From: an uncultured Gammaproteobacteria bacterium
GTDB taxonomy: Bacteria > Patescibacteriota > Patescibacteriia > SBBC01 > CAIJZX01
Reading direction: 5' to 3'
NCBI GenBank assembly: GCA_964518425.1
Contig: CAZFGG010000004.1
Location: forward strand, 5,701 to 69,700
DNA: 64,000 nucleotides
Position 1 is the stretch's first letter. Each line of letters starts with the position of its first letter. Of this stretch, positions 6,542 to 60,067 are shown piece after piece. A model generated the notes under the pieces. That model saw only the letters and a list, made by a program, of their open reading frames with translations. It was not told where the DNA came from and searched no databases. The position numbers were made by a program, and so were the translations under genes.

Positions 6542-7382
6542 AGTCAGGGCGTTGAGCGTGAATGCGTGTCAGCCAGACGATAACGGCTACTGACACAATA
6601 ACGAGGCCAGTGATGATTGGCAAACGGACGCCGTTCACCAGCGGCGTATGATCGACTCGCAGCGACTCGATAGCAATGCGTAACCCAGCGGCCAGAATAA
6701 GGTAGATCATAGCAATCGTGCCAGGCTGACCGGTAGCGAGGATGGGATGATTCGACCAGCGCCGTCGGTGTAACCAGATCATGAAAGCAGAAATCAGGAG
6801 ACTGCCGAGCGATTCGTAGAGAAAGGTCGGATGGAAATAAAGGGAATGAATAAATTGGAAGGGCCGGTGCGCGGTGTCAATTGGAATTCCCCACGGCAAG
6901 CCTGTCGGTCGTCCAAAGAGTTCTTGATTGAAGTAGTTTCCCCAGCGGCCGATAGCTTGCCCAACCGCTAAGCCAGGAGCAAGAATGTCCGTTAACGTCC
7001 AGAAAGGAATTTTCCGCCATCGTGAAAAGGCCAGCAGACCCAGTGTCCCCCCAATCAACCCGCCGTGCCAGGCCAAGCCCCCATTCCAGATTTTGATGAT
7101 GTCACTAAGATGTGCGCGGTAATAGCCCCACTCATTGGAGACATGGTACATGCGGGCCCCAACCAAACCAGTGATCAGAACGACGAGAAAAAGATCGACG
7201 ATGATGGTGTCACCAATCTGATATTTCTGGGCGATCCAGCGAACAACAAAAAATCCGGCCAGCGCGCCGATGGCCAAGGTCAAACCATACCAATGAATCG
7301 TCAGGTGACCGGCGTGGAAGAGAATAGCTTGTGGGTGCCAGGAATGGAGGAACATCGGCTCAAGTATAGCACGCCCGGACAA
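6531..7382 (-). CDS. lgt: Prolipoprotein diacylglyceryl transferase
   Basis: 'WNGGLAWHGGLIGG' and a multi-TM 283-aa protein with an Lgt-like N-terminus. Confidence 0.85.
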   Translation of the reverse strand: MSGRAILEPMFLHSWHPQAILFHAGHLTIHWYGLTLAIGALAGFFVVRWIAQKYQIGDTIIVDLFLVVLITGLVGARMYHVSNEWGYYRAHLSDIIKIWNGGLAWHGGLIGGTLGLLAFSRWRKIPFWTLTDILAPGLAVGQAIGRWGNYFNQELFGRPTGLPWGIPIDTAHRPFQFIHSLYFHPTFLYESLGSLLISAFMIWLHRRRWSNHPILATGQPGTIAMIYLILAAGLRIAIESLRVDHTPLVNGVRLPIITGLVIVSVAVIVWLTRIHAQRPDYVA

Positions 7383-38024: not shown

Positions 38025-38594
38025 ATGAAACGCCTACTCGCGCTGCTGGTTGTTAGCGGCGCCCTTATGGCCACGTCGGCCATGGCCGCATCATTGGTCG
38101 ACATCGACCTGGTCAGCTCGCCTGACGATCCGATTACTCAGGCCCAGACTATTCATCTGGACTCGGTCCGGGATTCGATTCAGGTCTTTACGAATCACTG
38201 GCTCGGTCTCAGCTTCTACGCTCGTGGGCGTGGGGCGGACAGTACGAGTTGGTTCGAACTGGACTTCGCGGCCGATTCCACCCTGCTTCAAGTTCAGGAC
38301 TACGGAAACGCCGCTCGTTTCCCAGCCGTCCCAGCCAAGGTGTTCAGCCTGCAAGTCTCCAGTTTTCATCAGATCTGTCCGTCGCTGCATGGCGACTTCA
38401 GCATCTCCGAGCTGGAGCAACATCCTAGCCAGCCAGGAAATGATCTGGAGACGACGAAATTGAAGCTGACCTTCAACCAGTATGAAGATGGAATGCCCTT
38501 CCCTTTGCAGGGCGTCATCACCATATCGCCGGTCTCGAGTACGTCGGCGGGGCCCATGTCGTGGGGAGAGTTGAAAATCTTGTACAACCGTTGA
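38025..38594 (+). CDS. Secreted hypothetical protein
   Basis: Signal peptide 'MKRLLALLVVSGALMATSAMA'. Confidence 0.45.
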   Translation: MKRLLALLVVSGALMATSAMAASLVDIDLVSSPDDPITQAQTIHLDSVRDSIQVFTNHWLGLSFYARGRGADSTSWFELDFAADSTLLQVQDYGNAARFPAVPAKVFSLQVSSFHQICPSLHGDFSISELEQHPSQPGNDLETTKLKLTFNQYEDGMPFPLQGVITISPVSSTSAGPMSWGELKILYNR

Positions 38595-38650
38595 CTTTCG
38601 TCAACACACCGCGCGTGACCTTCTGGCCACGCGCGTTTCTTTTTGTTTGT

Positions 38651-40774
38651 TTATCCGCCGGCGCAGGTCGACTTGCCGGTGTTACTGGTGATGATCAGAA
38701 CGGTTGGCGTCAGGAACGTGTTGCCGGCCGTATCGGTGACCGTCGTATTTAAGCGATGATGCCCATTGCAGTACAGGGCGGAGTTGAAGACAGCGGAATA
38801 GGGGGCAGCGGTTGAAACGAAGCCGGATTGATTATCGTCAACGTGAAATTGGACCGAGGCAATGCCGATGTTATCCGAGGCAGTCGCGGTCATAGTCGCA
38901 TCGCCCGTCATGGTTGTTTCGGCTGGCGTGCTGATCGATCCGGTTGGTAGGGTATCATCGACCACAAAGCTCAAGGTCGGCAGGGTCGTTGTTTGACCGA
39001 AGGTGTCTGTGGCTTTAACGATGAGGGTGTGACTAGCTAGGTTCGCTAAAGTGACATTCCGCAAGGACAGCCCCCAGCTATACGTTCCGAGAGCCGCATA
39101 CCACTGACCATCAATCTGTACTTCGACCTTTTGAAGGTCACCATTATCATCTGCCCGCCCGGCGATTAAGCACGTTGAGCAGAGATAGCGGCCAGCCGGA
39201 GATGAGTGACTGTTATCACTCGGCAGAACAAGCGAGAGAGTCGGTGGTGTTGTGTCCTGGCTCGTGTCTTTTGGAAACTCGAATTTCCCCATGTCAATAC
39301 GCGATCCGCCAACTGGCGGCGGCGGGGAAACTGGATCACCCCGGTCGATCGCTGGGCTACCATCTGATAGATTATACGATCCTCCGTCAAACAAGGGGTC
39401 AACGCCCGTTGAATGGACATCCTGACCGGTTCGCGCGATGAACGTCGTGATCGGCATAGACGAGGCGCCACAACACGAAGCCCAGTAGGTAATCGGCGTG
39501 GTTGAGCCGACACGCCAGAAGTTATTGTAGTCACCAAGGTACGTGCCCAAACCATTATCATTGAAATACATGGCCGGGGCGTCGTAGCTATAAAAAATAT
39601 TATTCCGGACATTCAATCTGCCCTTGCCATCAATAAGTAAGGCCCGGCCATGCAGGGCCACGACCGTGTTATTGGTGACGGTGGTCGTGGTCGTATTGTC
39701 TCCCACGCCGATAATCAGCGCCCCGCCATCGCTCGCGCTATTGGACGCGTAAATTGTGTTGTGGTCAAAGACGTCATTGCCGGTCGTCGTATCGTGCAAG
39801 ACGATACCACGTGTGGCGCCGGGCGGACCGCCAGAGCCACCGGAGAAGTAATTGTTTTTGATCAGGTTATCATGGCCCCAGGGTAACGTTTCATTGCCGG
39901 GACCATTGAAGCGTGCGGCATACTCGTTGGTTTTTTCGGTGTTCCCAATGAAGGTGTTATATGACGAGCCGTCACGGACGTACCACCCATATCGCTCCGA
40001 ACCATCGTTGAAACTCGGATAGGTGACGTTAAATGTGTTGTTCTTGAAGGTGTTGAAGAACGAGTAGTGGACTTGAATAGCGTTGCCCGTTCCGACAAAC
40101 TTGACTGGATTATTGTCAAAAACATTATTCCGGGCGAAGAAGAGCTGGATGTACCGGCTGTCTGACGTCGGGGCGGGTGTGGTTAGGCCGGTTTGAGCGA
40201 TAGAATTGTGAATAAAGGAATTGCCTTCAACATAGTTCAGATCAGTTCCTTTGAGTTGAATAGCCGCGAAGGCGTCGGCTGGAGTATAAATGAAGTTGTC
40301 CTGAAAAAGATTATCATCACTTGAAACTCCAAGATAGTTGAAGTGTGAGTTGATCACCTGATTGTGTCCGCCCCCGCCGAGGGAAATGCCACCGGGGATC
40401 GTTAAGTTTTTAATGACCACGCCCCTTCGATCAGTCAGGGTAATACTGTTGCTTCCCGTGACCTTGTGGGATTGTCCATCAAGCGTGACGTTATCAGCGG
40501 AAAAAGTGAAATTTCCGTTCCCGGCGATATCGCCTCCCAGGCAATACGTTTTTCCGCTTGATCCAAGCGTGTAGGGCAGGCTGTTGATAGTATAGTTACA
40601 AGCCACCGGTGTATTCGTATTGCCACTCCCTTCATTTCCACCAGAAATGAAAAAAATGATGGCGCTGGAAATAACAGATAGTCCACCAATGGCAATTGAT
40701 GCGACCAGAAAGACGCGGGTGAGAGAAATCACCTTACCTAGCGTGCTGGTTTTTTCTTGAGTCGTCATGGGCAT
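38651..40774 (-). CDS. Large secreted right-handed beta-helix (pectate-lyase-like repeat) protein with C-terminal Ig-like domains
   Basis: N-terminal TM/signal. Many 'NN.I..N' parallel beta-helix repeat units. C-terminal Big-like modules ('ASVQFHVDDNQSGFVSTAAPYSAVFNS'). Confidence 0.55.
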   Translation of the reverse strand: MPMTTQEKTSTLGKVISLTRVFLVASIAIGGLSVISSAIIFFISGGNEGSGNTNTPVACNYTINSLPYTLGSSGKTYCLGGDIAGNGNFTFSADNVTLDGQSHKVTGSNSITLTDRRGVVIKNLTIPGGISLGGGGHNQVINSHFNYLGVSSDDNLFQDNFIYTPADAFAAIQLKGTDLNYVEGNSFIHNSIAQTGLTTPAPTSDSRYIQLFFARNNVFDNNPVKFVGTGNAIQVHYSFFNTFKNNTFNVTYPSFNDGSERYGWYVRDGSSYNTFIGNTEKTNEYAARFNGPGNETLPWGHDNLIKNNYFSGGSGGPPGATRGIVLHDTTTGNDVFDHNTIYASNSASDGGALIIGVGDNTTTTTVTNNTVVALHGRALLIDGKGRLNVRNNIFYSYDAPAMYFNDNGLGTYLGDYNNFWRVGSTTPITYWASCCGASSMPITTFIARTGQDVHSTGVDPLFDGGSYNLSDGSPAIDRGDPVSPPPPVGGSRIDMGKFEFPKDTSQDTTPPTLSLVLPSDNSHSSPAGRYLCSTCLIAGRADDNGDLQKVEVQIDGQWYAALGTYSWGLSLRNVTLANLASHTLIVKATDTFGQTTTLPTLSFVVDDTLPTGSISTPAETTMTGDATMTATASDNIGIASVQFHVDDNQSGFVSTAAPYSAVFNSALYCNGHHRLNTTVTDTAGNTFLTPTVLIITSNTGKSTCAGG

Positions 40775-40877
40775 TGGTACGAGTTTCTCCTTAAGGAGTG
40801 TAGTCTATTTGGAGCTATATTGGCAACAAAGCCTAGGTTAGTAGTCCAAGCAGTTCTGACGTTCAGAAGAATCTAAA

Positions 40878-40900
40878 GCGCCCCCGAAAAACGGGGGCGC
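40878..40900 (-). terminator. Hairpin GCGCCCCCG-aaaaa-CGGGGGCGC downstream of the 40925..42256 gene
   Basis: Perfect 9-bp GC stem. The T-tract on the minus strand is short (TTT), so strength is uncertain. Confidence 0.5.
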
Positions 40901-40924
40901 TGGCTTGAAATTTTCCTCTTCAGT

Positions 40925-42256
40925 TTACGCCTTCACGAATATCAGCTTGAGGGTTTTTAGCAGTCGGCCTTTTGAAGTAACAGTGATAGTTTTCGTTCCA
41001 GCGCGTCTGGCTGAAAGCTTGAATGTCCAAATATTCGACTTAAAGGTTGGCTTACCGATGGTAATGAGTGGCGAGCTGATCAAGATAGGTTGGACCTTAA
41101 TGATCGTGCCGAATTTATTGCGGGTTCTGATTTGCACCGTGTACACCCCGGTACCATTGGCTTTGATACTCTTGCCGATAATCTTGTAGGTCGTCTTGTA
41201 TTTACTAATGGTCTTGAGGTTGGCCTGCTGGAGCTTCAGGCCGGCGGCCGTCATTTTGATGGTGTATTTCGGCGAGGAGAAGGTAATCGTTGAGACAGAC
41301 AAGGTTATTCCACCGGTAACGGCGTGAATGGTGAACGGTACGTCGCTGGTCGTGGTCGTGTCGCTGGTACGGGTGACATCAAGGGTGGATGTATCAACGT
41401 CGCCGCTCGCCAAACCGAATAGCGAATTGAGTACGGCTGTGGGAATAAAGGCCTCCATGCTACCGGTGTTGAGCGTCGTTCCATCCGCGAGGAAGTGTGG
41501 CGCGCCGAGACTGGCGACCAAACGCTTTGATCCGTCAGCAGCCGTCGAGGACGTAACCCAGCCGCCCATGGCTCCGGTGAGAGCGAAGTATGACCCGGCC
41601 ATATTGATTCCGACACCTGGTTCGAAGCTGAGGACGAATGACGCGCCGAGCACGTCTTCGCCGGATTTGTTGGCGTGGCAATCTGGTGGGACGGCCGTAC
41701 ATCCGCCAAAGTCGTCACCACTTCCGTGCGGCGTTCGTACGGGCGAGATCGTCGCATCGACTGAAGCCGCGGTGGTCCCAAGGTTAGCGGTCGTCCAGCT
41801 GCTGACCGAACCGTAAACCAAGGTGAACGTAAAGTTGGCGGCATTATCACCGAGGTTGGTCATGGTGATGGCGATTTTTGTGTCAGTCGTAACCGGGTCG
41901 CCCGTAGGAGTTGTGGCAATTGACAAATCGGAGGTGTTGCCTTGGTCGGTGTGCCAAATGACCGACACGCTCGTACGATTTCCTTTGGTCGTGTTTGGGC
42001 AAACCACGGCACCAAGAGAATTGAGCTCAGGATTAGCCGGGTCAGCAATAGCTGTTCCATCAACGGTCATGGAAGAAATTTGTGGCCGAACGACGCCTTC
42101 GCCGACCCAGGTCAGGGTCGTACTGCCATTGTCGCAGCTCGACTGGTCAGGCATGTTGAAGGTGGCTGCCTGGGCGTGAGCGTGAAGCCCAAAAATGCCG
42201 ATGATGGTGATCACGGCTGACGCGACGAATGTTCGTCGAAATGTATGTACCTGCAT
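40925..42256 (-). CDS. Secreted hypothetical protein with Ig-like/adhesin-like domains
   Basis: Signal peptide 'MQVHTFRRTFVASAVITIIGIFGLHAHAQA'. T/S/G-rich beta-sandwich-like repeats. Confidence 0.45.
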   Translation of the reverse strand: MQVHTFRRTFVASAVITIIGIFGLHAHAQAATFNMPDQSSCDNGSTTLTWVGEGVVRPQISSMTVDGTAIADPANPELNSLGAVVCPNTTKGNRTSVSVIWHTDQGNTSDLSIATTPTGDPVTTDTKIAITMTNLGDNAANFTFTLVYGSVSSWTTANLGTTAASVDATISPVRTPHGSGDDFGGCTAVPPDCHANKSGEDVLGASFVLSFEPGVGINMAGSYFALTGAMGGWVTSSTAADGSKRLVASLGAPHFLADGTTLNTGSMEAFIPTAVLNSLFGLASGDVDTSTLDVTRTSDTTTTSDVPFTIHAVTGGITLSVSTITFSSPKYTIKMTAAGLKLQQANLKTISKYKTTYKIIGKSIKANGTGVYTVQIRTRNKFGTIIKVQPILISSPLITIGKPTFKSNIWTFKLSARRAGTKTITVTSKGRLLKTLKLIFVKA

Positions 42257-42357
42257 TTGTTTTTTTCTTAATGATGAATGTTATGAATAGGCTAGCATGT
42301 TCACGCTAAAATGTCACGCCCGAAACAACCCCCGTTGGTGAGGGTTTGAATGACATG

Positions 42358-42525
42358 TGGCTCCGGGGGTCGGATTTACGACCCTGGGCAGCGGCGACTT
42401 GCCACTGGCAACTCGCCGGCCGCTCGAACTTCGCTTCGCTCGTTCTTGCTTCTGCCCTTCGAATCCGCCCAATCCAGATTGCGAAGACGGACGACACAAG
42501 GTCGTCCGCTTTCGCAATGGCTCCG
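42358..42525. other. GC-rich, stop-codon-free structured intergenic element (three strong hairpins, flanking 8-nt direct repeat) at the left edge of the GC-rich island
   Basis: Hairpins: 42367-42384 (GGGTCG-gattta-CGACCC); 42393-42417 (GGCGACTTGCCA-c-TGGCAACTCGCC); 42479-42517 (17-bp imperfect stem, loop acaag). 'tggctccg' occurs at 42358-65 and 42518-25. Six overlapping non-coding ORFs in the track reflect the absence of stop codons. Confidence 0.5.
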
Positions 42526-42649
42526 CCTCGTGGACGACGTCAGAACTTGGTTCCTGACGACCACAAAATATTTCAAGATTCCGGAGCTGGATCAGGTCAG
42601 TGCTCCACGCGATGCGCAGGCTGCCTAGGGGCCGAGCCGACGCTACGTG

Positions 42650-43081
42650 TCAGCCGTTGATCAGCGTGGACAACCAGACGAGGACGACCACGGTGATGAC
42701 GATGATGACGATGTTCGTCCGCATCTGACGGACGGCGAGCTTGTCGGTCTTCTTCGGATCGAGGAATTGCTCGAACTTGGCGATCGCCTCCGGGTCGCCA
42801 GTTGGGGCCAGTGTCCCGTCCGACCTGAGCGCAACCGTCAGCCTGAGGTTCCGGGCTGGTCGGCGGGGAAAGGCAAGGTAGATCAGCCCAGGGATCACGC
42901 CGAGGAGGAGCAGGATCGCAGCGACGAGGCAGCTCGCGCCGTCGGCGGGCACGGACCGCTCGTAGCGGATGAGGTCCGGCCGACGGTCGAGTAGGACCCA
43001 GCCCCTACCCCACTTCTCAGTGTTCATGAACTCTTCGAACTCGGCGAGGGCGTGGTTGGTGGCTGGTGGTGCGGTGGACAT
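42650..43081 (-). CDS. Hypothetical membrane protein
   Basis: Two TM segments ('LVAAILLLLGVIPGLIYLAF' and 'IVIIVITVVVLVWL'). GC-rich. Confidence 0.4.
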   Translation of the reverse strand: MSTAPPATNHALAEFEEFMNTEKWGRGWVLLDRRPDLIRYERSVPADGASCLVAAILLLLGVIPGLIYLAFPRRPARNLRLTVALRSDGTLAPTGDPEAIAKFEQFLDPKKTDKLAVRQMRTNIVIIVITVVVLVWLSTLING

Positions 43082-43133
43082 GCTGCAGGTGGTTAGTTGC
43101 ACCCGGCCAGCGAGGAGCTGGCGGGTTGAACAA

Positions 43134-44989: not shown

Positions 44990-45976
44990 ATGCCCCTCAC
45001 CACACCCCCCTTAGTGACCGTGCTGGTTCTGAATTGGAACGGCCTCTCGCATACATCCGAGTGCCTGCGCTCGCTCGAGCGATGCACGTACACAAATTTG
45101 CGAGTGGTCGTGGTCGACAACGGCTCAGCGAACAACGAGGCCGATCAATTGAGGAGTCTGTTCGCTGGCCGGATCAGCGTCTTTGCGGCTGGCCACAACC
45201 TCGGGTACGCCGGCGGCTGCAATTTCGGCCTCAAGAACATTGCTGTAACCGAATTGCCCGATTACCTGCTTGCCATCAACAATGATGTGGTCATCAGTCC
45301 CGATGCCATCGAGCACCTCGTTGCCGAGGCGGAGACCGATTCACGGTGCGCGATGGTGGCTCCCAGGCTCATGAATTATGTTCACCGAGAACGTGTGGAC
45401 AATCTCGGCCTAGCCCTCACGGTCACTGGCCTTGGGTTTGATCGCAAGACTGACCGCTACCCCTTATTCTGCCCAAATGGAGCCATGGCTCTGTATCGCT
45501 TTTCCGCGCTCTGGCAACTGCTAGGCATTCAAGGCGAGGTCTGGGATTCTGATTTTTTTGCTTACACTGAGGACCTCGACCTCGGTTTTCGACTGCGACT
45601 CCTCGGCTTCACCGCCAAGGCGTGCCCGAACGCCGTCGGCTACCACAAAGGCGGGGCTACCTCCGGTGGCGCCACCTCAGACTTCTCTCTGTACCAAGGT
45701 CACCGAAACAACCTGTGGTTTGTCGCGAAGGATTTCCCCAGCAGTATGCTGGCGAAACACAGCCTGGGAATCCTCGCTACGCAGCTCGGTACGTTCCTGC
45801 TCTACGCTCGCCGGCGTCGCCTCGGCCTCCTTCTCCGGGCCAAGTGGAGCGCGCTTCGGGGTATCCCTAGGATGATCATGAAACGCCGCCGCGTCCTCCG
45901 TCTCCGGCTACTCACCGATCAGCAACTCGCGGCAGTGATGATCCCGCGAGCTTACGTCTCTCCGTCGAGCACCTAG
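44990..45976 (+). CDS. Family-2 glycosyltransferase (rhamnosyl/galactofuranosyl-transferase-like)
   Basis: 'LVTVLVLNWNGLSHTSECLRSL...VVVVDNGSANNE', 'INNDVVISPD'. GT-A fold motifs. Confidence 0.75.
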   Translation: MPLTTPPLVTVLVLNWNGLSHTSECLRSLERCTYTNLRVVVVDNGSANNEADQLRSLFAGRISVFAAGHNLGYAGGCNFGLKNIAVTELPDYLLAINNDVVISPDAIEHLVAEAETDSRCAMVAPRLMNYVHRERVDNLGLALTVTGLGFDRKTDRYPLFCPNGAMALYRFSALWQLLGIQGEVWDSDFFAYTEDLDLGFRLRLLGFTAKACPNAVGYHKGGATSGGATSDFSLYQGHRNNLWFVAKDFPSSMLAKHSLGILATQLGTFLLYARRRRLGLLLRAKWSALRGIPRMIMKRRRVLRLRLLTDQQLAAVMIPRAYVSPSST

Positions 45977-46738: not shown

Positions 46739-46873
46739 GCGGGGTGGTTTGGCCGACGTTGTCTACCTAAGACACGGCTGCACGTCTTCACCGCAGCAAC
46801 CCTCGGCCGCTCTTTGACAATTGGACGTGCGGATCCGTCCGTGCGCCCAAACACAACCCAAAGGAGGGTCGTC

Positions 46874-49189
46874 GTGAGACGGATGTGCTGTCTGTTTGTC
46901 GTGGGCGCGTCACTTTTCCTCAGTGTGCCGCGGTCCGCGCAGGCTACGTGCCCTGGAAACTGGGGTGATTCGCTCGCCACCTACCGCAGCGTGGTGGCCA
47001 ACTCGAACGGCACGGACGTTGGCTGTTCGAATGGCAGCAGCTCGTACGGGTACAAGTATCAGTGCGTTGAGTTCGTGAAGCGCTTCTACGGAGAGGCGAT
47101 GCACTTCTCGTCAACGCCCTGGTCAGGTGACGGTGTCGACTACTATGGCTCCGCTGCCACCAAGGGATTGCGGCAGTTTGCTGACGGCGGGTCGGTGAAG
47201 CCCAAGGAGAACGATATCCTCTGCTTCTCCGGCAACACCTTCGGGCATGTCGGCATCATCACCGAGGTAGGCTCCAACTACGTCAAGATGATCGACCAAA
47301 ATCGCACCACCTCTGGGGGATCAAACAATCCGAAGCAATTGACCCTGAGCGGCCCGAGCGGTGGGTGGTCTATCTCGAGTTTCAGTGGCTCGTACCCCGT
47401 CCAAGGCTGGCTCCGAGGCTACACTTCGGACTACAAGGATCAGACACCCAGCGGCACCGCAACCCTCACACCAGGGCAGGCGCTGTACTTCAAGGTCCGG
47501 TACACGAACACGAGTCACGCCAACGCGCCGCATTGGAAGAACGACGGCGGGAGTCAGTCCGTCGAGCTGCGGTCATGCACGAGCACGGGAGTCGAGACGA
47601 GTTCTTTCCTGTACCCCGTGAGCGGTCAGACCACATGGCTTGATCCAACCGATCGCAAGCGCATCGTGCACATGACGGAATCGGACGTAGGAGGAAACAC
47701 GGGAGTCGCCACGTTTGAGTTCTGGGCCAAGGTCCCTGAGTCCGCGACGCTGGGGACGCACAACGTCTACTTCCGCCCCTACCATCAGTCTGGTCAATGG
47801 ATTGAGGAATGGGACGGGATGTACTTCTCAATCAATGTTGTTGCCCCAATACCCGATCCGGCGTACGGATTGATCCTTCGGAATCCCTCAACCGCCGAGT
47901 GGTGGACGAGGGTGTCGAACGGCTTGGCCTTCGCCTACCCGCCTGGAGCCAACACGCCAGCTGACCTTTGGATCTCCGGATGGGCTCTTGACGACGGCAG
48001 CTACACCTTCACTCCTTACGTCGGTGACTTAAACGGCGACACCTACGACGACCTGGTCGTCGAACGCAGTGACTGCAAGTGGTACGTAGCTTGGAACAAC
48101 CAAGACGGATCATTCACCTCGCAAGGATCACCGATTCTTAACCCGTGGGCCACGTCGCCGTCCCCTGGCAAATATTTCTTCTGGTTCACCAACGTGACCG
48201 GAGATGCCAAGGACGAGCTCCTGACCTACGATGCCTCTAACGGCAACTGGTACGTCTGTACGTTCAACACCAGCACGAATACCTTCGACAACTGCAGCAC
48301 CTGGTTGACGTGGGGTGGTGGTGTCGGAACGTTTCAGCCACTCGCCGGAGATTGGAATGGCGACGGCAAGAGCGATATCTGCCTGCGCAATCCATCCACC
48401 GGCAACCACTACGTCCGGTTATCCTCTGGCACTGGCTTCTACCAGGGCACGAACGACAACTGGATCGGCTGGGGCGCGGGCAGCGAGTTCATCCCGATCG
48501 TCGGAGACTGGAACGGCGACGGCAAGGACGACCTGATGCTATGGAAAACGTCCACCGGCGAGTGGTTCGTCCGAACGTCAGATGGCACGGCCTTCGTCTA
48601 CCCCTCGGGAAGCAACTCTCCGGCCGACCGCTGGATGGTCTGGGGCGATCCGAGCTACACGCTCTTTACGGGCGACTTCAATGATGACGGCAAGGTCGAC
48701 GTTGGATTACGGAATCCAAGCACTGGCGACCACTGGGTTCGCACCTCGACTGGCCTCGCCTTCACCCAACCCTCACCAGACAACTGGTTGGCAGGGTGGG
48801 GCGGTAGTTCCTACCAGCTGCTGACCGGACGGTTTGGCAACGGGGAGCTGGGCGGTGGGTTCTCGTTGCAGCCAGCGCCTCCTGAAGATGATCAGCCACC
48901 TCCGGCGGTGCCTCTGTCGTTCAGGATTTGGGTGGCACCAAATCCAACCACGTCGAATGCTACAGTCAACTTCGCCTTGCCGACGTCTGATCGGGCCAGC
49001 ATCTCGATCTACGACGTCAGTGGTCGTGAGGTAGCTCAGTTCCCCGAGGAACCCTATGGCGTCGGCCAGCACACGCTTACGTGGAGCAGGACCAGCCCCC
49101 GTGGAGGACGGGTGGCGGACGGCATCTACTTCCTGACGTTTCGGTCGACACTTCACACGATCAGCAAGAAGATCATTGTTCTCAACTGA
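46874..49189 (+). CDS. Secreted CHAP-domain amidase/peptidase with FG-GAP repeats and a T9SS-type C-terminal sorting domain
   Basis: SD AAGGAGG 6 nt before the GTG at 46874. Signal peptide 'MRRMCCLFVVGASLFLSVPRSAQA'. CHAP domain 'YQCVEFVKRFY...FGHVGII'. At least 5 FG-GAP units ('GDWNGDGKSD', 'GDFNDDGKVD'). C-terminus 'VAPNPTTSNATVNFALP...ISIYDVSGREVAQ...ADGIYFLTF...KKIIVLN' matches the Por_Secre_tail pattern. Confidence 0.7.
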   Translation: MRRMCCLFVVGASLFLSVPRSAQATCPGNWGDSLATYRSVVANSNGTDVGCSNGSSSYGYKYQCVEFVKRFYGEAMHFSSTPWSGDGVDYYGSAATKGLRQFADGGSVKPKENDILCFSGNTFGHVGIITEVGSNYVKMIDQNRTTSGGSNNPKQLTLSGPSGGWSISSFSGSYPVQGWLRGYTSDYKDQTPSGTATLTPGQALYFKVRYTNTSHANAPHWKNDGGSQSVELRSCTSTGVETSSFLYPVSGQTTWLDPTDRKRIVHMTESDVGGNTGVATFEFWAKVPESATLGTHNVYFRPYHQSGQWIEEWDGMYFSINVVAPIPDPAYGLILRNPSTAEWWTRVSNGLAFAYPPGANTPADLWISGWALDDGSYTFTPYVGDLNGDTYDDLVVERSDCKWYVAWNNQDGSFTSQGSPILNPWATSPSPGKYFFWFTNVTGDAKDELLTYDASNGNWYVCTFNTSTNTFDNCSTWLTWGGGVGTFQPLAGDWNGDGKSDICLRNPSTGNHYVRLSSGTGFYQGTNDNWIGWGAGSEFIPIVGDWNGDGKDDLMLWKTSTGEWFVRTSDGTAFVYPSGSNSPADRWMVWGDPSYTLFTGDFNDDGKVDVGLRNPSTGDHWVRTSTGLAFTQPSPDNWLAGWGGSSYQLLTGRFGNGELGGGFSLQPAPPEDDQPPPAVPLSFRIWVAPNPTTSNATVNFALPTSDRASISIYDVSGREVAQFPEEPYGVGQHTLTWSRTSPRGGRVADGIYFLTFRSTLHTISKKIIVLN

Positions 49190-49319: not shown

Positions 49320-50222
49320 TCAGATCGAGTGATGAACGACCAAGAGGATCGCGGCAGAGGTGGCGTTGATCGCATACTCGGCCTGCGCGGCAGTCACGCT
49401 GCGCGGCTGCGTGCCACCACCGTGGGAGGTGCTCAGGCGATTTCTCATCGTCGCGACCAAGAGCAGCGGCTGCTCGAAAAAGGTTTCCAGGCCAGAGTTC
49501 TTGATCACAGCGTCGAGAAGAGGCTTCGCGGTATCGGTCGGCTGAAAGGGCAAACCCTTGATCGTGCAGACAATTTTGAGCACGCTCTCAAACGCGCTGC
49601 CACACTTGGTCAGGCAGTCGCCGTAGTCGCCCTTGCGAAAATCTTCCAGGGCCTGCAGAAATTCTTTGTTCGCCGCCCCGAACCGCCCATCAGCGAGTAG
49701 TTCAAGCGTGGGACCGACAGCCATGGCGTGGACCACCTGGGAGTCTTTCCGGATCACCCGGGGAAACTCCGCGACCCGCTGCGCCTTTCCGCCTGGCCAA
49801 TCAGACGGTACCTCTTCCCACACATGCTGGGTAAGGGCGTAGGGCAGGTCGTCACGCTGAAGGAATACGTTGATGCTCTCGATCAGCGGCTCGAGCGCAT
49901 GGACCCACCTACCCTCGCCGTGGCGGAAGATCATCTCCAGTGCATCGAGAAACTGTGGGTCAGAGCATTGCATGAGCCAGCGACCCGCTTCATCGCGAGG
50001 ATCACTGCCCCTCACTCCGAGGGTCATCGTGCCTTGGAGGTACGCCAGTCGCTTCCACAGGTCCGTCCACGCGGCACCTTCGATGCCGGCTTGGGCAACG
50101 ACCTCCTGGAAGCGCATCAGGACGCGGGTGCGAAACTCCGTGGTCAATGGCTTCAGCGTCACGTTGGTCGGCGCGTGGGTGGGTCGTCGCGAGAACACAT
50201 CGAAGAGCTTAGAGAACTCCAC
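49320..50222 (-). CDS. AbiJ-like abortive-infection protein with C-terminal Abi_C/HEPN domain (gene D of the four-gene operon)
   Basis: C-terminus 'LLLVATMRNRLSTSHGGG...AAQAEYAINATSAAILLV': Rx6H HEPN motif in the RN..(S/A)HG context typical of Abi_C. Confidence 0.6.
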   Translation of the reverse strand: MEFSKLFDVFSRRPTHAPTNVTLKPLTTEFRTRVLMRFQEVVAQAGIEGAAWTDLWKRLAYLQGTMTLGVRGSDPRDEAGRWLMQCSDPQFLDALEMIFRHGEGRWVHALEPLIESINVFLQRDDLPYALTQHVWEEVPSDWPGGKAQRVAEFPRVIRKDSQVVHAMAVGPTLELLADGRFGAANKEFLQALEDFRKGDYGDCLTKCGSAFESVLKIVCTIKGLPFQPTDTAKPLLDAVIKNSGLETFFEQPLLLVATMRNRLSTSHGGGTQPRSVTAAQAEYAINATSAAILLVVHHSI

Positions 50223-53742: not shown

Positions 53743-55734
53743 CTATGCCGATGTGGTTGACCCGTCAAGAGTTACACCAACGGTCAGGGTTGTGTCCGTC
53801 GGGCCGAGGACGCCTTCAAGCTTGAGCAGCGTGAGTCGGGACGGCGTGTAGGTTCCTAGCTCCGTGTTTCGGATGGTCCTGACGTGGATCCTTGCCCGGC
53901 TTGCCAGGTCATCCTGAGTTAGCCCGAGGCGGAGCCTAGCCGCTCGGATCCGTCCGGGCAGCCCGTCTCGCTCAGGGACGAGTCCTGAGCCAAGGACCGA
54001 TTCGATTGCTGGCCAGCGGCGAGACAGGGGCACGTTGAGGCCACGTTCCCAGCCGGCCACGGTCTGATACCAGCACCCGAGTTTCTTGGCGAGGGTTTGT
54101 TGCGTCAGGCCGACATCCATCCGCCGCTGGCGAATCCGGTCGCCCAAGGTGACGGGGCAGTGCGGATAACCCCTTGGGAACACACGCGGTCTGGCAGCGG
54201 TCAGTCTGAGAGCGGTAAAAGGCAACGCAACAGTGAAGTTGTGTTGCCTTTTACCTACGTCTTCGGCGGAGCAGGGAAAGGGGCTAAGGTCAATCTCGAC
54301 AACCTCCTTTCCCACCTGGATCTTCTCGACGATGGCTTCGATGATGGCCTGCTTTTCCTCGGCGGTGAGGGTCGGCCAGCGGGCATAGAGGTCGCGGGTT
54401 TCGGAGAGGATCTCATCCCGGCCGAGGAACTGAACCTTCAGGAAGTCCAGCTCCCCCTGAAGCCTGGGCAGCTCCTCTTCCAAGCCCTTCAGCCGCTCTT
54501 CGAGCGGGCGATAGGTCCGGCCGAATCCTTCGGGTGAAATCTGGTCGGTCACGTAGAGCCGATAGATCTTCTCCATCTCCTGCCGGACTTTGGTCAGGTC
54601 CCCATCCAGGCTGACGAGCCGCTCCTCCTTGGCTTTGATCTCCTCGTCAGCTTGCCCGAGGTGCCGAGCCACATCGTCGGGTGAAAGGAAGAAGTCCCGC
54701 AGCTGTTCATGGAAGACGGCTTCAAGATCGCCGACCGCGATCTTGTTCCGGCACCTTCGGCAGATGTATTTCCCGGCTTGGTAGCTGGCGTCGACGTACA
54801 TCTTGCCGCCACAGTGACAGTGGGCCACGCCAGCAAAGAGGTGGAGCGGCTTGCGCGCCGGTCGCTTCAGACGCTCTCGCTGCTGGTCGAGGATCGCCAG
54901 GCACGCCGCCCACGTCTCGGCCGGGATGATCGGTTCGACGGATGAGAGCACCCACTCATCCTGCGGCTTGAGCTTCCAGGCCTTCTTCTCTCCGAGCGAC
55001 TTCGTGTAGTTGGCCCGACGCGTGCCCTTGGCAATGGGATCACGCAGCAGCCGATCGATCGAGGTGTCAGAAAACTTTCCGCCACCCCGCGTGCGGTAGC
55101 CCTTCTCATTGAGTAGCCGGGCCACCGCTTTCTTGCGGCGGTGCTCGAGGAACAGCTCGTAGATGAGCTTGCGGATCGGCGCTTCCTGCGGGTCCGGCCG
55201 GAGCTGGCGGTCTTTCCACTGATAACCGAAGGGTGCAGCACCGCCGGTTGACTTGCCGAGCTTGGCGCGGATCGACACCGACGCGGCCACGCGCTCGCCG
55301 ATTTCCTCCCGCTCCCACTGCGCCATGGCCGCAATCATCGTGTAGAAGAGCCGGCCAGCCGGCGTCGAGGTGTCGATGGCCTCTTGGAGCGAGATGAGAT
55401 CGGCCCCGTCTCGCCGAAAAATATCCGCAAAGTCCAGCAGCTCTTTGGTGTTTCGCGCCAGCCGAGCCAGCTTTGAAAAAATCAGGCCTGTGATGTGGCC
55501 GCTGGCGATGTCCTGGAGCATCCGTTTCGCTTCTGGATGCCCCATCACGGATTTCCCGCTCACCGCTTCGAGGTGATAGACCTCGCGGATCTTCCAGCCC
55601 TTTGACTCGGCGTAGGCGCGGGCACGCCGTTCGTGATGCTCCGGGCTTTCGCCCCTGGCTTGGTCTTCGGTCGAGACGCGGATCCAGATCCCGACAGGCT
55701 TCGCCTGCTCGTGTGCCCCAGTCTTGGTGCCCAT
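53743..55734 (-). CDS. Large serine recombinase with two C-terminal XRE-family HTH domains
   Basis: Resolvase catalytic 'IWIRVSTEDQ', recombinase domain, zinc ribbon 'CHCGGKMYVDASYQAGKYICRRCRNK', coiled coil. Then 'LTQQTLAKKLGCWYQTVAGWERG' and 'LTQDDLASRARIHVRTIRNTELG' HTH_XRE-like units. Confidence 0.8.
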   Translation of the reverse strand: MGTKTGAHEQAKPVGIWIRVSTEDQARGESPEHHERRARAYAESKGWKIREVYHLEAVSGKSVMGHPEAKRMLQDIASGHITGLIFSKLARLARNTKELLDFADIFRRDGADLISLQEAIDTSTPAGRLFYTMIAAMAQWEREEIGERVAASVSIRAKLGKSTGGAAPFGYQWKDRQLRPDPQEAPIRKLIYELFLEHRRKKAVARLLNEKGYRTRGGGKFSDTSIDRLLRDPIAKGTRRANYTKSLGEKKAWKLKPQDEWVLSSVEPIIPAETWAACLAILDQQRERLKRPARKPLHLFAGVAHCHCGGKMYVDASYQAGKYICRRCRNKIAVGDLEAVFHEQLRDFFLSPDDVARHLGQADEEIKAKEERLVSLDGDLTKVRQEMEKIYRLYVTDQISPEGFGRTYRPLEERLKGLEEELPRLQGELDFLKVQFLGRDEILSETRDLYARWPTLTAEEKQAIIEAIVEKIQVGKEVVEIDLSPFPCSAEDVGKRQHNFTVALPFTALRLTAARPRVFPRGYPHCPVTLGDRIRQRRMDVGLTQQTLAKKLGCWYQTVAGWERGLNVPLSRRWPAIESVLGSGLVPERDGLPGRIRAARLRLGLTQDDLASRARIHVRTIRNTELGTYTPSRLTLLKLEGVLGPTDTTLTVGVTLDGSTTSA

Positions 55735-57013: not shown

Positions 57014-60000
57014 TCATCCCTTCTTCTTTAGGCGGCGAAGGGCCTTAGCAATCACGGCCGACACCGCTCCATGCTTGGCTTCCTGTTCCTCGGCTTGCCC
57101 GGGACGGCGACGGACGCGGACGCGGTAACCGCGCACCGTCGACTCCTCGGCTGGTTGGAGCGAGTGCAGTCCACCGAGAAGATCAAGGACTTCCTCCGGG
57201 CTGACGAGGTGCACGCGCTCAAACTGTTCCGGGGTGAGCGCAGCCTTGGCCAGGGTGCGGATATGCCCGAGGCGACGCTTTTCCCCAGAAACTATCACCA
57301 CGAAGGAGAATCCTGCGGCCACACACTTCTGAAGATTTTGCGCCTCGTGCTCAGCCGGGGAGCTGACGACAATTTCGCAGGCGACCGACGTTCCATTCTT
57401 TCGAAGCGCAACATCCACACTCCCCAACCCATCGAGTACCGCTTCCTCGATCGTTGCGCCCCAGCCGTTCGCGAGTGCCCAGCGTCGAATGAGGTCTTGG
57501 AGGTACTTGTGCTGCGCACCGCCTCGTCCGGCCGTGGACGGAAGTGTCGCCGAATCGACGACCGAAGTGGTTGCCGCCACCGGTGGCAACGGTGAGCTGA
57601 CCGGAACGGGCCTCGCGTGTCGCGGTGAGGACGCTGGTGTCGGTTCCTCGACAGCTGCCGCCGGTGCATCTGCCTCCCGCCCGGACCGGATGATCGCTTC
57701 AATCTCGGCTCTGGGCCGGGCGTACTGCTCCCGTGATGCGGCAACAACCTTCGCCCGATTAGTTTCGGCGACTGCCTCGTCGAGAGCCGACAAGAGCGGA
57801 GTGCGAAGGTTGAAATCCCAATCGGCTCGTTCCACCCGGGCAATAGCTTCACCGGTGCCGAGATTCTGGAGGTCGTCAGCGTTGAAGCTGGAGAAGCCCT
57901 TCGCCAGAAGCCGAGCATCCTCGTCACCGACTCTGAAGGAGACACGCGTGGCTGGATTGGCGAGGACGGAGGCCAGCACGTCGCCACTGCGACTCTGGAG
58001 CTGTCGCAAGTCCTGGTGAGCAAGCACCAGTGCCAAGCCATACTTTCGAGCGCCGGAGAGAATCTGCGCCATCGAGGGGGTAACGAAGTGGTGGAATTCG
58101 TCGATGTAAAGGTAGAAGGGCCGGCGCTTCCCTTCGGCTACGTCTTGTCGGCTCATCGCCACCTGATGGAGCTTGGAGACGAGCAACGTCCCAAGCAGAT
58201 GTGCGTTTTCCTCGCCAATCGCCCCGTGCGAGAGCCGACAAAGAAGGATCTTTCCCTCGTCCATGACTCGCCGCAGGTCAAGCCGGCTATCTTGCTGGGC
58301 CACCATGTACCGGATCGGCTTTGGGCGAAGGAAGGAGTCGAGGCGCGTCAGAATCGGGGCCTGCGGTCGGCCACGCAGCAGCGGAAATTCTCGCTCCCAA
58401 AAATAAATGACGTCCGGGTCGCGAACGGTCTTGAGGAATTCCTTCCGGAATCGATCTTCGACCAGGAACCGCCGCAGGTCCACCAGCGTGCCGCCCTGCT
58501 CGCTTTCAACGAAGGCCAGCACGGCGTTCCCGAGCACGGACGTCATCTGGTCGCCCCAGCTCATGGACATGCGCTGGAACACCATCACGAGGTCTGATGA
58601 CAGGAGCGTTTTCTCGAGATCCGAGGCGGCCGAGAGGATGTTGAAGCCGATCGGGAACTCGGCATCTGCCGGGTCGAGCAAGATGACGTCTTGAAGACGG
58701 CCCTCAGGAACAAGGCCCAGAACGCGATCAATCAGATCGCCGTGAGGATCGAAGACGGCGAGGCCTTCGCCGTTCTCAAGGTCTTGTCGGATGAGATTCA
58801 GCAAGAGCGTAGACTTCCCAGTGCCGGATGCTCCGATGACGTACATGTGTCGCGATCGGTGATCGGCGGAGAGCCTGACCTCGTCCACCTGATCATCGTG
58901 GACGTTCTGTCCAAGGCAAACACCTTGGCTCAGGACGGACGGGGGTGCGGCCTTTGTCTTGTGTCCATGCCGCAGCAACCGCGGGTCGCGAACGCCACTG
59001 GTCGGCAGGTGCACGAGCGAGGCGAGCTCCTCGACACTCAGGAGCATGCCGCTGCGATGTGAGCGCCGGCCGAGGAGATCATCCTCGTGCTGCTGGGACG
59101 AGTAGTCACCGTCTGGCTGCAGCGGGATGAGTTCATTTGCGAGTGGATCGCTCAGGGCTCCCATGGCACCGGCCACCTGGCGTGCCACCGCTATCGCCCG
59201 CCCACGCGTTGGGCTCTTGATCCCGACCCGAATGACGCTGGCGAACAGCGGGCGCGCCACCTTCGCCTTGGCGAGGGCGGAGATCTCCGGCGCATCGATA
59301 AAAAACGGAGACCCCTGTTCGTCCAGAACCGCGCGCAATATTTCGCGTGCCCAAGGCTGGCGCGCTCGGCAGGCTAGTACCTGGAAGAGCCCTGCCTCAC
59401 CAGCCCGCAGATTGGAGAGTGCACCCACCACCCCAGCCAGCGGATCGACGTCAAATTTTCTTACCGCACGGAGGGGTACCATGAACTCGTGGGCCAAGCC
59501 GAAGTCCACTACGACGGCTTCACCGCCGAGCGCGTCCCACCTCGGGGCCACGGCTTCACGTCCCCGAGAAACGAGGATTTCGGGAAAGTAGGCCTTCAGG
59601 CATTGCGACAGAACCGGCTCGTCTTCGGCTGAACACGTGAACAACAGCCGGGTCGATTCTTCGGCTCCGAACAGCTCAAAGGCAATCGGGCCAATGGCGG
59701 TAGGAAGAGCGAGAAGGAACTGCTCGGCGGCCTCGCGAGAAACATCGAGATCCGGCGGCACAGCAACAAGCAGCTGTGCGATCTCTTCGTGCCCGCGCCA
59801 CCGACCAGGTGTCGGCTCGTCGAAACTGCTGTCTTCACTCGCCTCGGTCGGCCTGCCTCCAGATGTGCCGACGAGCCGATCCGTCAGACGACTTAAGAGT
59901 GTCGGGCGGCGACCATCATCGAGTCTGTCCGGTGACGTCGCGATCTGCGGAAAATAAAATGGCCTGAACGGCGGCTCAAGTTCGACCGGCTCTGGCCATA

Positions 60001-60067
60001 GCTGCCAACCGCGGCCTCGTCTTTCCCAGGCGTAGAAGTGATCAGTCAGCGACTCGATCGAAGACAC
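57014..60067 (-). CDS. HerA/FtsK-superfamily P-loop NTPase (DUF87/TraD-like core) with large N-terminal and C-terminal extensions
   Basis: Walker A 'VIGASGTGKSTLL', 'LAVFDPHGDLID', Walker B 'FYLYIDEFHHF', 'LALVLAHQDLRQL' (TraG-D_C-like). C-terminal 'SVDVALRKNGTSVACEIVVS' is restriction-endonuclease-like. 1017 aa. Confidence 0.65.
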   Translation of the reverse strand: MSSIESLTDHFYAWERRGRGWQLWPEPVELEPPFRPFYFPQIATSPDRLDDGRRPTLLSRLTDRLVGTSGGRPTEASEDSSFDEPTPGRWRGHEEIAQLLVAVPPDLDVSREAAEQFLLALPTAIGPIAFELFGAEESTRLLFTCSAEDEPVLSQCLKAYFPEILVSRGREAVAPRWDALGGEAVVVDFGLAHEFMVPLRAVRKFDVDPLAGVVGALSNLRAGEAGLFQVLACRARQPWAREILRAVLDEQGSPFFIDAPEISALAKAKVARPLFASVIRVGIKSPTRGRAIAVARQVAGAMGALSDPLANELIPLQPDGDYSSQQHEDDLLGRRSHRSGMLLSVEELASLVHLPTSGVRDPRLLRHGHKTKAAPPSVLSQGVCLGQNVHDDQVDEVRLSADHRSRHMYVIGASGTGKSTLLLNLIRQDLENGEGLAVFDPHGDLIDRVLGLVPEGRLQDVILLDPADAEFPIGFNILSAASDLEKTLLSSDLVMVFQRMSMSWGDQMTSVLGNAVLAFVESEQGGTLVDLRRFLVEDRFRKEFLKTVRDPDVIYFWEREFPLLRGRPQAPILTRLDSFLRPKPIRYMVAQQDSRLDLRRVMDEGKILLCRLSHGAIGEENAHLLGTLLVSKLHQVAMSRQDVAEGKRRPFYLYIDEFHHFVTPSMAQILSGARKYGLALVLAHQDLRQLQSRSGDVLASVLANPATRVSFRVGDEDARLLAKGFSSFNADDLQNLGTGEAIARVERADWDFNLRTPLLSALDEAVAETNRAKVVAASREQYARPRAEIEAIIRSGREADAPAAAVEEPTPASSPRHARPVPVSSPLPPVAATTSVVDSATLPSTAGRGGAQHKYLQDLIRRWALANGWGATIEEAVLDGLGSVDVALRKNGTSVACEIVVSSPAEHEAQNLQKCVAAGFSFVVIVSGEKRRLGHIRTLAKAALTPEQFERVHLVSPEEVLDLLGGLHSLQPAEESTVRGYRVRVRRRPGQAEEQEAKHGAVSAVIAKALRRLKKKG

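Follow-up and report, generated by a model that had tools for sequence, protein, structure and literature searches.

What is the short, GC-rich and strongly folding stretch at positions 42358-42525 of a 64,000-nt segment of contig CAZFGG010000004.1 (positions 5,701 to 69,700; this whole segment is called the window from here on)? The host is a Patescibacteria (Candidate Phyla Radiation, CPR) bacterium, and its RpoD is 82% identical to that of Kerfeldbacteria-like metagenome-assembled genomes. A prediction made earlier from the letters of the sequence (the original prediction) had offered a non-coding RNA (ncRNA), a cluster of protein-binding palindromes or the remnant of an attachment or target site. 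According to the data presented here, the stretch is better read as layered debris that mobile elements have left at the 3' terminus of a tRNA-Asn(GUU) gene than as one dedicated gene, a view held with a little more than even confidence. In its best form, this reading takes the region to be a truncated tRNA-Asn 3' end plus a member of a family of small units found behind tRNA genes, here named tRNA trailers, abutting a conjugative-type island.

The physical description given in the original prediction has been reproduced. An inverted-repeat search returned a longer-armed hairpin at 42478-42495/42501-42518 (18-nt arms, 89% complementary, 5-nt loop) and a palindrome at 42392-42404/42406-42418 (13-nt arms, 92% complementary, 1-nt loop), and both strands also fold into the third predicted hairpin, GGGTCG..CGACCC at 42366-42386. 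The exact 8-nt direct repeat, TGGCTCCG, occurs in identical copies at 42358-42365 and 42518-42525, a repeat that on its own is not significant, as chance copies of the same 8-9-mers exist elsewhere in the window. The tract described as CT-rich (42427-42461) is 77% C+T, and six open reading frames (ORFs) in six frames all overlap the element. It is located, as had been said, between two minus-strand genes (40925-42256 and 42650-43102), at a point where the GC content jumps from ~53% on the left to ~60-66% from 42600 to the end of the window. The run without a stop triplet on both strands (42377-42541, 165 nt) is the longest of the window and was matched by none of 1000 local dinucleotide shuffles. 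Folding energies compared with dinucleotide shuffles gave z = -4.6 for the minus strand (0/200 shuffles as stable) and z = -4.1 for the plus strand (1/200), with minus-strand values from -3.5 to -4.6 across the folds of the element. The element is more than chance.

It is also not a known ncRNA, terminator or riboswitch. The original prediction had proposed an Rfam scan as a check, which returned no family in 42340-42600 even at E ≤ 10, and a scan of the whole window with Rfam 15 at gathering thresholds reported only its two tRNAs. No terminator-like or promoter-like sites were called on either strand in 42150-42750, and the U-run that marks an intrinsic (Rho-independent) terminator is absent behind all three hairpins. 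Hammerhead, twister, pistol and K-turn motifs, considered for the conserved core CCUGYCCC-GAG..UCGA-GGGG, were discarded as misfits by inspection, in agreement with the empty Rfam result.

What the original prediction missed was the tRNA origin of the element, and with it the minus strand as the relevant one. The survey of relatives comprised 87 related loci (numbered L001 onwards) picked via two marker proteins, 80 of which are rpoD loci, and most of these 80 hold parts of the order tRNA-Ser(GGA)-dnaG-rpoD-tRNA-Asn(GUU). The window contains tRNA-Ser(GGA), dnaG and rpoD, and no tRNA-Asn was found in it by ARAGORN or Rfam; the only tRNAs reported by ARAGORN in the window are tRNA-Leu and tRNA-Ser. 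Compared by BLAST with the related loci, the element matched the 3' ends of their tRNA-Asn genes. The matching piece is a 19-nt copy of tRNA-Asn(GUU) nt 58-76, AAUCCGACCCCCGGAGCCA, at 42358-42376 on the minus strand (19/19 against L056 and L039; E 1.5e-5). Read from 42376 to 42358, it spans the 3' nucleotides of the T-loop, the 3' strands of T-stem and acceptor stem, the discriminator G73 and CCA, and it includes the left-hand TGGCTCCG. Since this left copy of the repeat lies in the tRNA-Asn match, the direct repeat is the reverse complement of the tRNA 3' end (CGGAGCCA). The 19-nt tail was the only piece matched when the window was searched by BLAST with seven tRNA-Asn sequences, and ARAGORN and the Rfam tRNA and group I intron models detected no complete cloverleaf (anticodon arm, 5' acceptor strand) at the element.

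Read 5' to 3' on the minus strand, the element begins with CGGAGCCA at 42518-42525, that is, the right-hand TGGCTCCG. One base after its CCA stands the 18-bp hairpin (42478-42518, minus strand; inverted repeat and alignment), which has no U-tract and which, judged by its position, would be the counterpart of the hairpin or terminator found directly behind the tRNA CCA in relatives. It is followed by the spacer CUGGAUU (42471-42477, minus), recognized from the sequence and from alignment with the elements of L011 and L037, and by the block GGGCGG AUUCGAA (42458-42470, minus), a degenerate T-stem 5' strand plus the 5' half of a T-loop according to inverted repeats and the minimum free energy fold, for which AAUCCG(A)CCC in the 19-nt copy is a possible pairing partner. 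The pseudo-T-loop closed by this pairing is occupied by a GC-rich structured insert of 81 nt (42377-42457, minus; inverted repeats and folding), whose outer helix GGGCAG/CUGCCC (42452-42457 with 42386-42391) surrounds a small hairpin and the 13-1-13 palindrome (42392-42418). The CT-rich tract is this insert seen from the plus strand. At the far end, the last bases of the insert fold onto the first bases of the tRNA-derived copy in the hairpin GGGUCG UAAAUC CGACCC (42366-42386, minus), an alternative to the long-range pseudo-T-stem; comparable G-run/C-run junction hairpins appear in L056, L037 and L078. The hairpins, the GC richness and the missing stops would all follow from such a structured insert joined to tRNA-derived sequence.

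The whole element aligns with elements located behind the intact tRNA-Asn genes of L011 and L037, and its orientation to rpoD is the same in L011 as in the window. In the alignment, the CGGAGCCA, U and 18-bp hairpin of the window, where the body of the tRNA is missing, are lined up with the CGGAGCCA, U or A and long hairpin at the intact tRNA-Asn of both relatives. Read from this context, the right-hand CGGAGCCA would be the last 8 nt of a tRNA-Asn gene of which the other ~68 nt are gone, and nothing tRNA-like was found upstream of it by ARAGORN, Rfam or the tRNA-Asn BLAST. Among the options of the original prediction, the attachment- or target-site remnant thus came closest, inasmuch as the repeat is the reverse complement of the tRNA-Asn 3' end; the two copies, however, do not enclose the large island but a tRNA-trailer element of ~140 nt, and the island begins beyond the right-hand one. 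T-box-like pairing of the plus strand in antisense was considered and dropped, since the element is co-sense with the tRNA in relatives. An intron-containing tRNA-Asn under the 150-aa ORF was likewise ruled out, with no T-arm upstream of CGGAGCCA and no group I intron match.

Units built from the same parts stand behind other tRNA genes of the relatives. Their order is the CCA of the tRNA, a hairpin (often with a U-run), a short spacer, a pseudo-T-stem block in which A(U)UCGAAG or AYGAGAAG stands behind a degenerate T-stem 5' strand, an insert of 15-110 nt with GC-rich hairpins, and a copy of the tRNA 3' end. This copy is exact, is taken from the adjoining tRNA, and in most units begins right after the UUCG of the T-loop (nt 57/58); in L004 and L016 it begins in the anticodon loop instead. 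When a trailer copy is defined as a non-tRNA copy of the last 15 nt of the tRNA itself with at most one mismatch, 18 of the 149 tRNAs found by ARAGORN in the 80 rpoD loci have one 47-324 nt downstream. The intron-containing tRNA-Asn genes of L029, L030, L040 and L056 also carry it, as do two of the three tRNAs of L082 (tRNA-Gln and tRNA-Gly), and the trailer-bearing tRNAs represent seven specificities (Asn, Ser, Leu, Arg, Glu, Gln and Gly). The order GGGCGG-AUUCGAA-insert-AAUCCGACCCCCGGAGCCA of the window shows this architecture of block, GC-rich insert and exact nt 57/58-76 copy, and its part order is shared by the units of L011, L029, L037, L068, L024, L082, L059 and L069, all of which hold the T-stem 5'-like block with A(U)UCGAAG or AYGAGAAG.

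Some relatives hold several units. In L059, four compact units with a near-identical hairpin and core follow four different tRNAs within 2 kb, the pseudo-T-stem and 3' copy of each matching its own tRNA. Tandem units exist in L029, L030 and L028. In the array of L029, tRNA-Asn is followed by two copies of an 85-nt repeat, the first with insert 1 and the second with insert 2 behind it, and by a truncated third copy; a CRISPR-like or integron-like reading of this array was abandoned as analogy only, the repeat being 85 nt long. In L028 (1460-1783), the 162-nt trailer behind tRNA-Ser(UGA) is present in two near-identical tandem copies, each with an extra piece ending in ...CCGCCA. Mirror-image units have also been found, in which a 5' pseudo-copy with a GC hairpin precedes the tRNA and is cut in one of three loops (D, anticodon or T). 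For tRNA-Asn, pseudo-copies of this kind (the first 11-16 nt and a few upstream bases, then a hairpin) lie at ~12010-12150 in L042, ~12370-12460 in L079 and 3428-3470 in L029. The hairpin of the L042 pseudo-copy resembles, as its reverse complement, the T-loop insert of L078 (UCCCCCGAAGC...GCGAAGGGGGA), a likeness which suggests that the same module may insert in either orientation.

The closest relative of the insert of the window was reached through the neighbouring gene for a 443-aa protein (40925-42256), whose homologue in L082 shows 66% protein and 70% DNA identity. Positions 42383-42466 of the window are 89% identical over 85 nt to an insert at 9177-9261 of L082 (E 4e-25), compared with no more than the 70% of the neighbouring gene. 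The L082 unit sits behind tRNA-Gln(UUG) and a terminator-like hairpin with a U-run, and its flanks, which differ from those of the window, are fitted to tRNA-Gln (pseudo-T-stem CAGGG, copy AAUCCCUGUCCCCGAGCCA). Six of the nine substitutions in the 76 nt shared by both form three compensatory pairs, by which the helices of the insert are kept, so that the conservation of the stems in relatives, which the original prediction had named as a check, was found in this one. Given the 89% shared insert, the compensatory pairs and the different tRNA flanks, the insert is a module whose hairpin structure is under selection and which occurs behind different tRNAs. Elsewhere, the inserts labelled L029_I2 and L011_Asn are clearly homologous (z = 13.5), that of the window shows weak similarity to L011_Asn (7/200 shuffles) and shares with L011 the insert hairpin UGCCAGYGGCA..GUCGC, and most other pairs have no detectable similarity, the inserts of the long forms being heterogeneous.

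Such structural conservation would also be expected if the trailer were a functional ncRNA, transcribed with or after the tRNA and mimicking a T-arm, an acceptor 3' strand and CCA. This alternative, which takes up the first option of the original prediction, we consider doubtful. It might take the form of a half-minihelix with an expanded T-loop, possibly acting as a decoy or competitor for enzymes that process the tRNA 3' end or modify tRNA, or for nucleases that target tRNA, or else helping to control how the upstream tRNA matures. Between the window and L082, the helices of the insert are kept by compensatory substitutions, as are those of the compact subfamily, whose P1 helix is 97% paired and has both sides changed in 4 of its 5 pairs, and the tandem G.A/A.G mismatches beside P1 are kept with no drift to Watson-Crick pairs. 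A T-loop-like pentanucleotide, UUCGA or UGAGA, is retained behind the pseudo-T-stem, minus-strand folding is significant in the range given above, and in the compact forms of L059 and L069 no terminator stands between tRNA and unit; the sole terminator-like hairpin with a U-run follows the second CCA there, so that tRNA and trailer probably make up one transcript. Against an RNA, however, no Rfam family matches at E ≤ 10, nor does any besides tRNA match the canonical L059 units. The long forms of L029, L030, L040, L067 and L082 have a strong terminator-like U-run hairpin between tRNA and unit with no room for a promoter, and the window has lost the upstream tRNA together with its promoter. Most mismatches in the pseudo-T-stem are A.C when read on the sense strand, a G→A decay of the G-rich strand that would be expected of a neutral relic and not of a selected helix; G.U pairs are symmetric and therefore uninformative for strand assignment. 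Moreover, identity that at times runs past the CCA into the flank, and units standing in tandem, are features of DNA, like the terminator-like hairpins that separate tRNA and unit in the long forms.

The resemblance to known tRNA-like and minihelix RNAs is partial. The tRNA-like domain of transfer-messenger RNA (tmRNA), the YrlA-type Y RNA-like RNAs and the 3' tRNA-like structures of viruses belong to this class, and the trailer is, like them, a structured unit of RNA size that closes at its 3' end with a T-arm-like helix and an acceptor 3' strand terminating in GCCA. Unlike them, it has no 5' acceptor strand and, unlike tmRNA, no tag frame, the stretch being stop-free. A tmRNA or permuted tmRNA, brought to mind by GGAUUCGA and the CCA end, was ruled out because a tag stop codon is absent and the ARAGORN and Rfam models returned nothing at the window element. 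A guide-RNA reading of the 19-nt copy as a homing spacer for TnpB or Cas12k was rejected as well; no such protein is encoded nearby and the guide would target the tRNA of the host itself.

Direct repeats that run from the T-loop to the 3' end of a tRNA also call to mind the attachment sites of integrative elements. The 2002 classification by Williams is said to include T-loop sublocations (class II) among the sites that such elements use in tRNA genes. The trailers could accordingly be attL/attR remnants (left and right attachment sites) of large prophages or integrative and conjugative elements (ICEs) that recombined in the tRNA T-loop and later lost their interiors, with the hairpins as leftover arms, a history that we judge improbable. 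As at tRNA attachment sites, the direct repeat is a 3' segment of the tRNA from the T-loop to CCA or a few nucleotides past it, tandem units adjoin the tRNA, an actual island with a site-specific recombinase abuts the window element, and serine recombinase genes lie beside tRNA-Asn in L015 and L051. In contrast to such sites, the repeats of the trailers enclose ~90-190 nt with no genes, a conserved structured hairpin insert stands between the T-stem-5'-like block and the repeat, near-identical trailers occur at several tRNAs of one genome, and no full-length version bearing an integrase was seen in the 10-kb flanks. None of 57 tRNA-Asn loci has a tail copy kilobases away with an intervening integrase, all copies being 31-324 nt distant. 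Independent deletions would not yield the same part order in more than 20 loci and seven tRNA types, nor do they fit the four near-identical compact units behind four different tRNAs within 2 kb in L059 or the 89%-identical insert, with its compensatory changes, at a tRNA-Gln and a tRNA-Asn site. Pattern scans of IMG/VR and searches of phage and plasmid collections returned no related sequence, and a pattern scan of metagenomes found only L056 again.

A further clue comes from small genes encoding GIY-YIG nucleases (PF01541). The 80 rpoD loci contain 21 such ORFs, and 17 have a tRNA no more than 181 nt away, in most cases directly downstream and in the same orientation; the four proteins tested are 73-85 aa long. 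ORFs immediately upstream of tRNA-Asn, tRNA-Ser and tRNA-Met genes and co-oriented with them were noted; examples at tRNAs are located in L016 (12184-12417), L017 (1724-1978), L018 (6541-6801 and 12282-12515), L037 (437-673 and 7040-7264), L067 (11360-11587), L068 (3670-3936), L071, L074 (10005-10534) and L084 (638-895). In L068, L017 and L074, the ORF lies between a loop-cut 5' pseudo-copy of a tRNA and the full tRNA. The order in L068 is the resident tRNA-Ser nt 1-69 (through the UUCG of the T-loop), a hairpin insert, AAUCC, the GIY-YIG gene, a full tRNA-Ser, a hairpin, a pseudo-T-stem, an insert and the last 19 nt of the tRNA, an arrangement that reads as a cassette which would have split the resident tRNA-Ser in its T-loop.

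A comparable situation exists in fungal mitochondria, where free-standing GIY-YIG genes insert at gene 3' ends with partial duplication (as in Allomyces atp6) and where mobile GC-rich double-hairpin elements (DHEs), or GC clusters, are found. In both systems, a duplicate brought in by the insertion rescues the essential gene that was interrupted while the displaced part stays as a pseudo-fragment, small GIY-YIG ORFs occupy the same genes in relatives, and GC-rich hairpins mark the junctions. The differences are that the hosts here are bacteria, that the targets are tRNA loops, and that most trailers, that of the window included, have no ORF. We know of no cleavage specificity for these 73-85-aa GIY-YIG proteins.

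Among bacterial non-autonomous hairpin elements, such as repetitive extragenic palindromes (REP) and bacterial interspersed mosaic elements (BIME), palindrome-associated transposable elements (PATEs) derived from IS200/IS605, and miniature inverted-repeat transposable elements (MITEs), the likeness is again incomplete. Trailers are, like these, short, GC-rich, strongly folding and intergenic, with multiple related copies per genome (L059) and compensatory conservation of structure. Unlike them, they are strictly tied to tRNA 3' ends, with a target copy of at least 19 nt fitted to each tRNA; and, in contrast to REP elements and PATEs, no RAYT or TnpA gene came up, no search having been aimed at them.

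In the mechanism that we propose, the trailer unit would be a small non-autonomous mobile element. It would enter a tRNA gene in the T-loop, between TTCG and AA, and bring along a new 3' end, in many cases with a terminator, while the original 3' end would be displaced and stay downstream as a pseudo-fragment. The hairpin insert would be the part recognized by an enzyme acting in trans, and the small GIY-YIG nucleases at tRNA genes of the same genomes are candidates for this enzyme, which would be the autonomous partner. Later, an ICE-like or IME-like (integrative and mobilizable element) island may have entered the functional tRNA-Asn copy within or right at its acceptor-stem end. Its entry would have left CGGAGCCA on this side, and the rest of the tRNA-Asn would be expected at the far end of the island, outside the window.

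The island extends from 42526 to the end of the window at 64000, with a GC content of ~60% and a left boundary placed by composition and Pfam within 42526-42650. According to Pfam, it encodes a large serine recombinase with two C-terminal helix-turn-helix (HTH) domains (53743-55734, 11 kb from the junction), a TraG/TrwB-like coupling protein (57014-60067), a CHAP/FG-GAP protein with a Por_Secre_tail domain for type IX secretion sorting (46814-49189), an Abi-like protein (49320-50222), a GT2 glycosyltransferase (44990-45976) and an HsdR-like protein (62232-63842). A recombinase and mobile-element genes, in DNA of deviating GC content (~60% compared with ~53%), thus stand beside the tRNA junction, as would be expected of an island in a tRNA gene. 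Homologues of the serine recombinase (~30% identity) lie directly beside tRNA-Asn in L015 and L051, and homologues of the recombinase and of HsdR are found next to tRNA-Asn in other Patescibacteria (L015, L051 and L001). The probable target of this conjugative-type island and its large serine recombinase is tRNA-Asn. Within the recombinase ORF, an 18-nt inverted repeat (54214-54255, 94% complementary, 6-nt loop) separates the recombinase part from the HTH domains and could be a fusion scar or a site.

An assembly chimera, in which two genomes were joined at a tRNA-like repeat, would likewise produce a GC step and a truncated tRNA. The change in GC content is indeed abrupt and sustained to the end of the window, synteny with the relatives is absent on the island side, beyond rpoD, and the right part carries the Por_Secre_tail domain, which is unusual in CPR bacteria and may point to the donor lineage of the island. 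The tRNA sequence shared at the junction, however, is only 8 nt long, far under the k-mer sizes of assemblers; the island-type genes (recombinase, coupling protein, Abi, restriction subunit) explain the change in composition; and homologues of the recombinase and HsdR occupy the same place beside tRNA-Asn in the three relatives just named. A chimera is accordingly very improbable.

Four nucleotides from the tRNA remnant, in an AT-richer stretch ahead of the first ORF of the island, lies a 35-nt imperfect palindrome, GTGGACGACGTCAGAAC TTGG TTCCTGACGACCAC (42530-42564), seen in the sequence and formed when either strand is folded; it may be a site of recombination, another hairpin insert or a 3' stem-loop. 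The analogue of this palindrome is a 42-nt hairpin in L029, inserted just ahead of a degenerate CCGGGGCCA. A crossover between CCCC and CGGAGCCA shared by L029 and the window had been entertained and was withdrawn, the break in L029 being this 42-nt hairpin insertion followed by the degenerate CCGGGGCCA.

On the other side of the element, three genes for proteins of 189 aa, 707 aa (with Big_7 domains) and 443 aa separate it from rpoD (38025-42256). They have no counterpart in the 80 rpoD loci, and the stretch includes DNA of low GC content (~46% at 40000-41200); homologues of the 443-aa protein (66-71% identity) exist on other contigs in differing contexts. The position of the element ~100 nt upstream of the start of the 443-aa gene, and that of the homologous insert upstream of the corresponding gene in L082, would agree with a cis-regulatory leader, a riboswitch or a terminator cluster, serving as the 5' untranslated region of 40925-42256 or the 3' end of 42650-43102. 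In L082, though, an omdA-like gene (9433-9774) separates the insert from the 443-aa homologue, and the homologues of L084 and L085 have no element upstream. Across the relatives, the element tracks tRNA genes and not any one protein gene. Together with the absence of Rfam matches and of promoter-like or terminator-like sites, this leaves a cis-regulatory role with hardly any probability.

Several observations weigh against mobile-element debris at the tRNA-Asn 3' end. No simple cut-and-paste or integrase scheme explains how the pseudo-T-stem and the 3' copy come to be tailored to each tRNA, and compensatory evolution is equally compatible with a functional RNA, as is the co-transcription of tRNA and unit that is likely in L059 and L069. 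At 8 nt, the right-hand CGGAGCCA is short and owes its assignment to its context, and the entry of the island into tRNA-Asn is deduced from one junction, the intact tRNA-Asn and the far end being outside the window. The insert of the window has no significant similarity to those of most other long forms, so its family membership depends on its architecture and on L082 as the one strong match. For the compact subfamily, a covariance model (R1), which finds 14 members at E<0.05, gave a non-significant 14.2 bits (E 1.3) on 42358-42427 of the minus strand, and the window element is a long, GC-rich form, not a compact one. Finally, tblastn with four GIY-YIG proteins found no match in the window, and the link between enzyme and insert consists of their co-occurrence in relatives.

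The tRNA-Asn genes of these relatives hold other insertions as well. Inserts of ~210-540 nt in the anticodon loop, which cause the genes to be missed by ARAGORN, were seen in L056 (3564-3849), L010 (~11600-11915), L053 (~9800-10123), L063 (~6900-7183), L029 (3471-4065), L030 and L040, and several of them contain an ORF with CxxC...H motifs that is HNH-like by eye. Group I introns at position 35/36 are known for the tRNA-Asn of Patescibacteria (PMC13011429), and the anticodon-loop inserts match these in all likelihood. The window element resembles such introns in its phylum, in its tRNA gene and in being a loop insertion of the kind that defeats standard tRNA finders, and the intron-bearing genes of L029, L030, L040 and L056 carry trailers too; it differs from them in lacking a group I intron signature (Rfam) and in placing its ~80-nt insert in the pseudo-T-loop of a partial copy, outside the functional tRNA. 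In L001 (11297-11566), two extra tRNA-Asn-like copies stand between rpoD and the canonical tRNA-Asn, one of them an apparent orthologue of the tRNA-Asn of L002, with GC-rich inserts in the D-loop and the T-loop that each start with CCGCCUCCGCA. In L051 (11120-11280), the space between rpoD and tRNA-Asn is filled by ~160 nt of tandem heptamers, CGTAACT/CGTAACC.

A literature search on tRNA-end duplicates in Patescibacteria found no description of trailer units, and a term search of the intron study showed no mention of duplications, pseudogenes or the T-loop (PMC13011429), so that the family is apparently undescribed. Tentatively, then, and with less than even confidence, the trailers would be a Patescibacteria-specific class that has not been described before, either tRNA-loop-homing miniature elements or a new family of RNAs mimicking tRNA ends. 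In the former case, they possibly home into the T-loop, and apparently also into the D-loop and the anticodon loop, under the drive of GIY-YIG nucleases, and would bear a GC-rich hairpin module of constrained structure along with a tailored end that rescues the tRNA; in the latter, tRNA-end mimics could be encoded behind a sizeable fraction of the tRNA genes of the phylum.

tRNA completeness is a yardstick of genome quality in CPR bacteria, and tRNA-Asn is known to be missed in Patescibacteria because of introns (PMC13011429). Where tRNA ends are truncated or duplicated and carry hairpin inserts, tRNA annotation meets a second source of error, and such places are hot spots at which rearrangements occur and islands insert. 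Should the units be mobile, they show how the essential tRNA genes of a minimal genome can be invaded without the death of the host, and the many small GIY-YIG genes at tRNA loci gain a role that can be tested. If they are RNAs, they would make up an abundant new family of tRNA mimics in a group of bacteria in which, to our knowledge, almost no regulatory RNA has been characterised.

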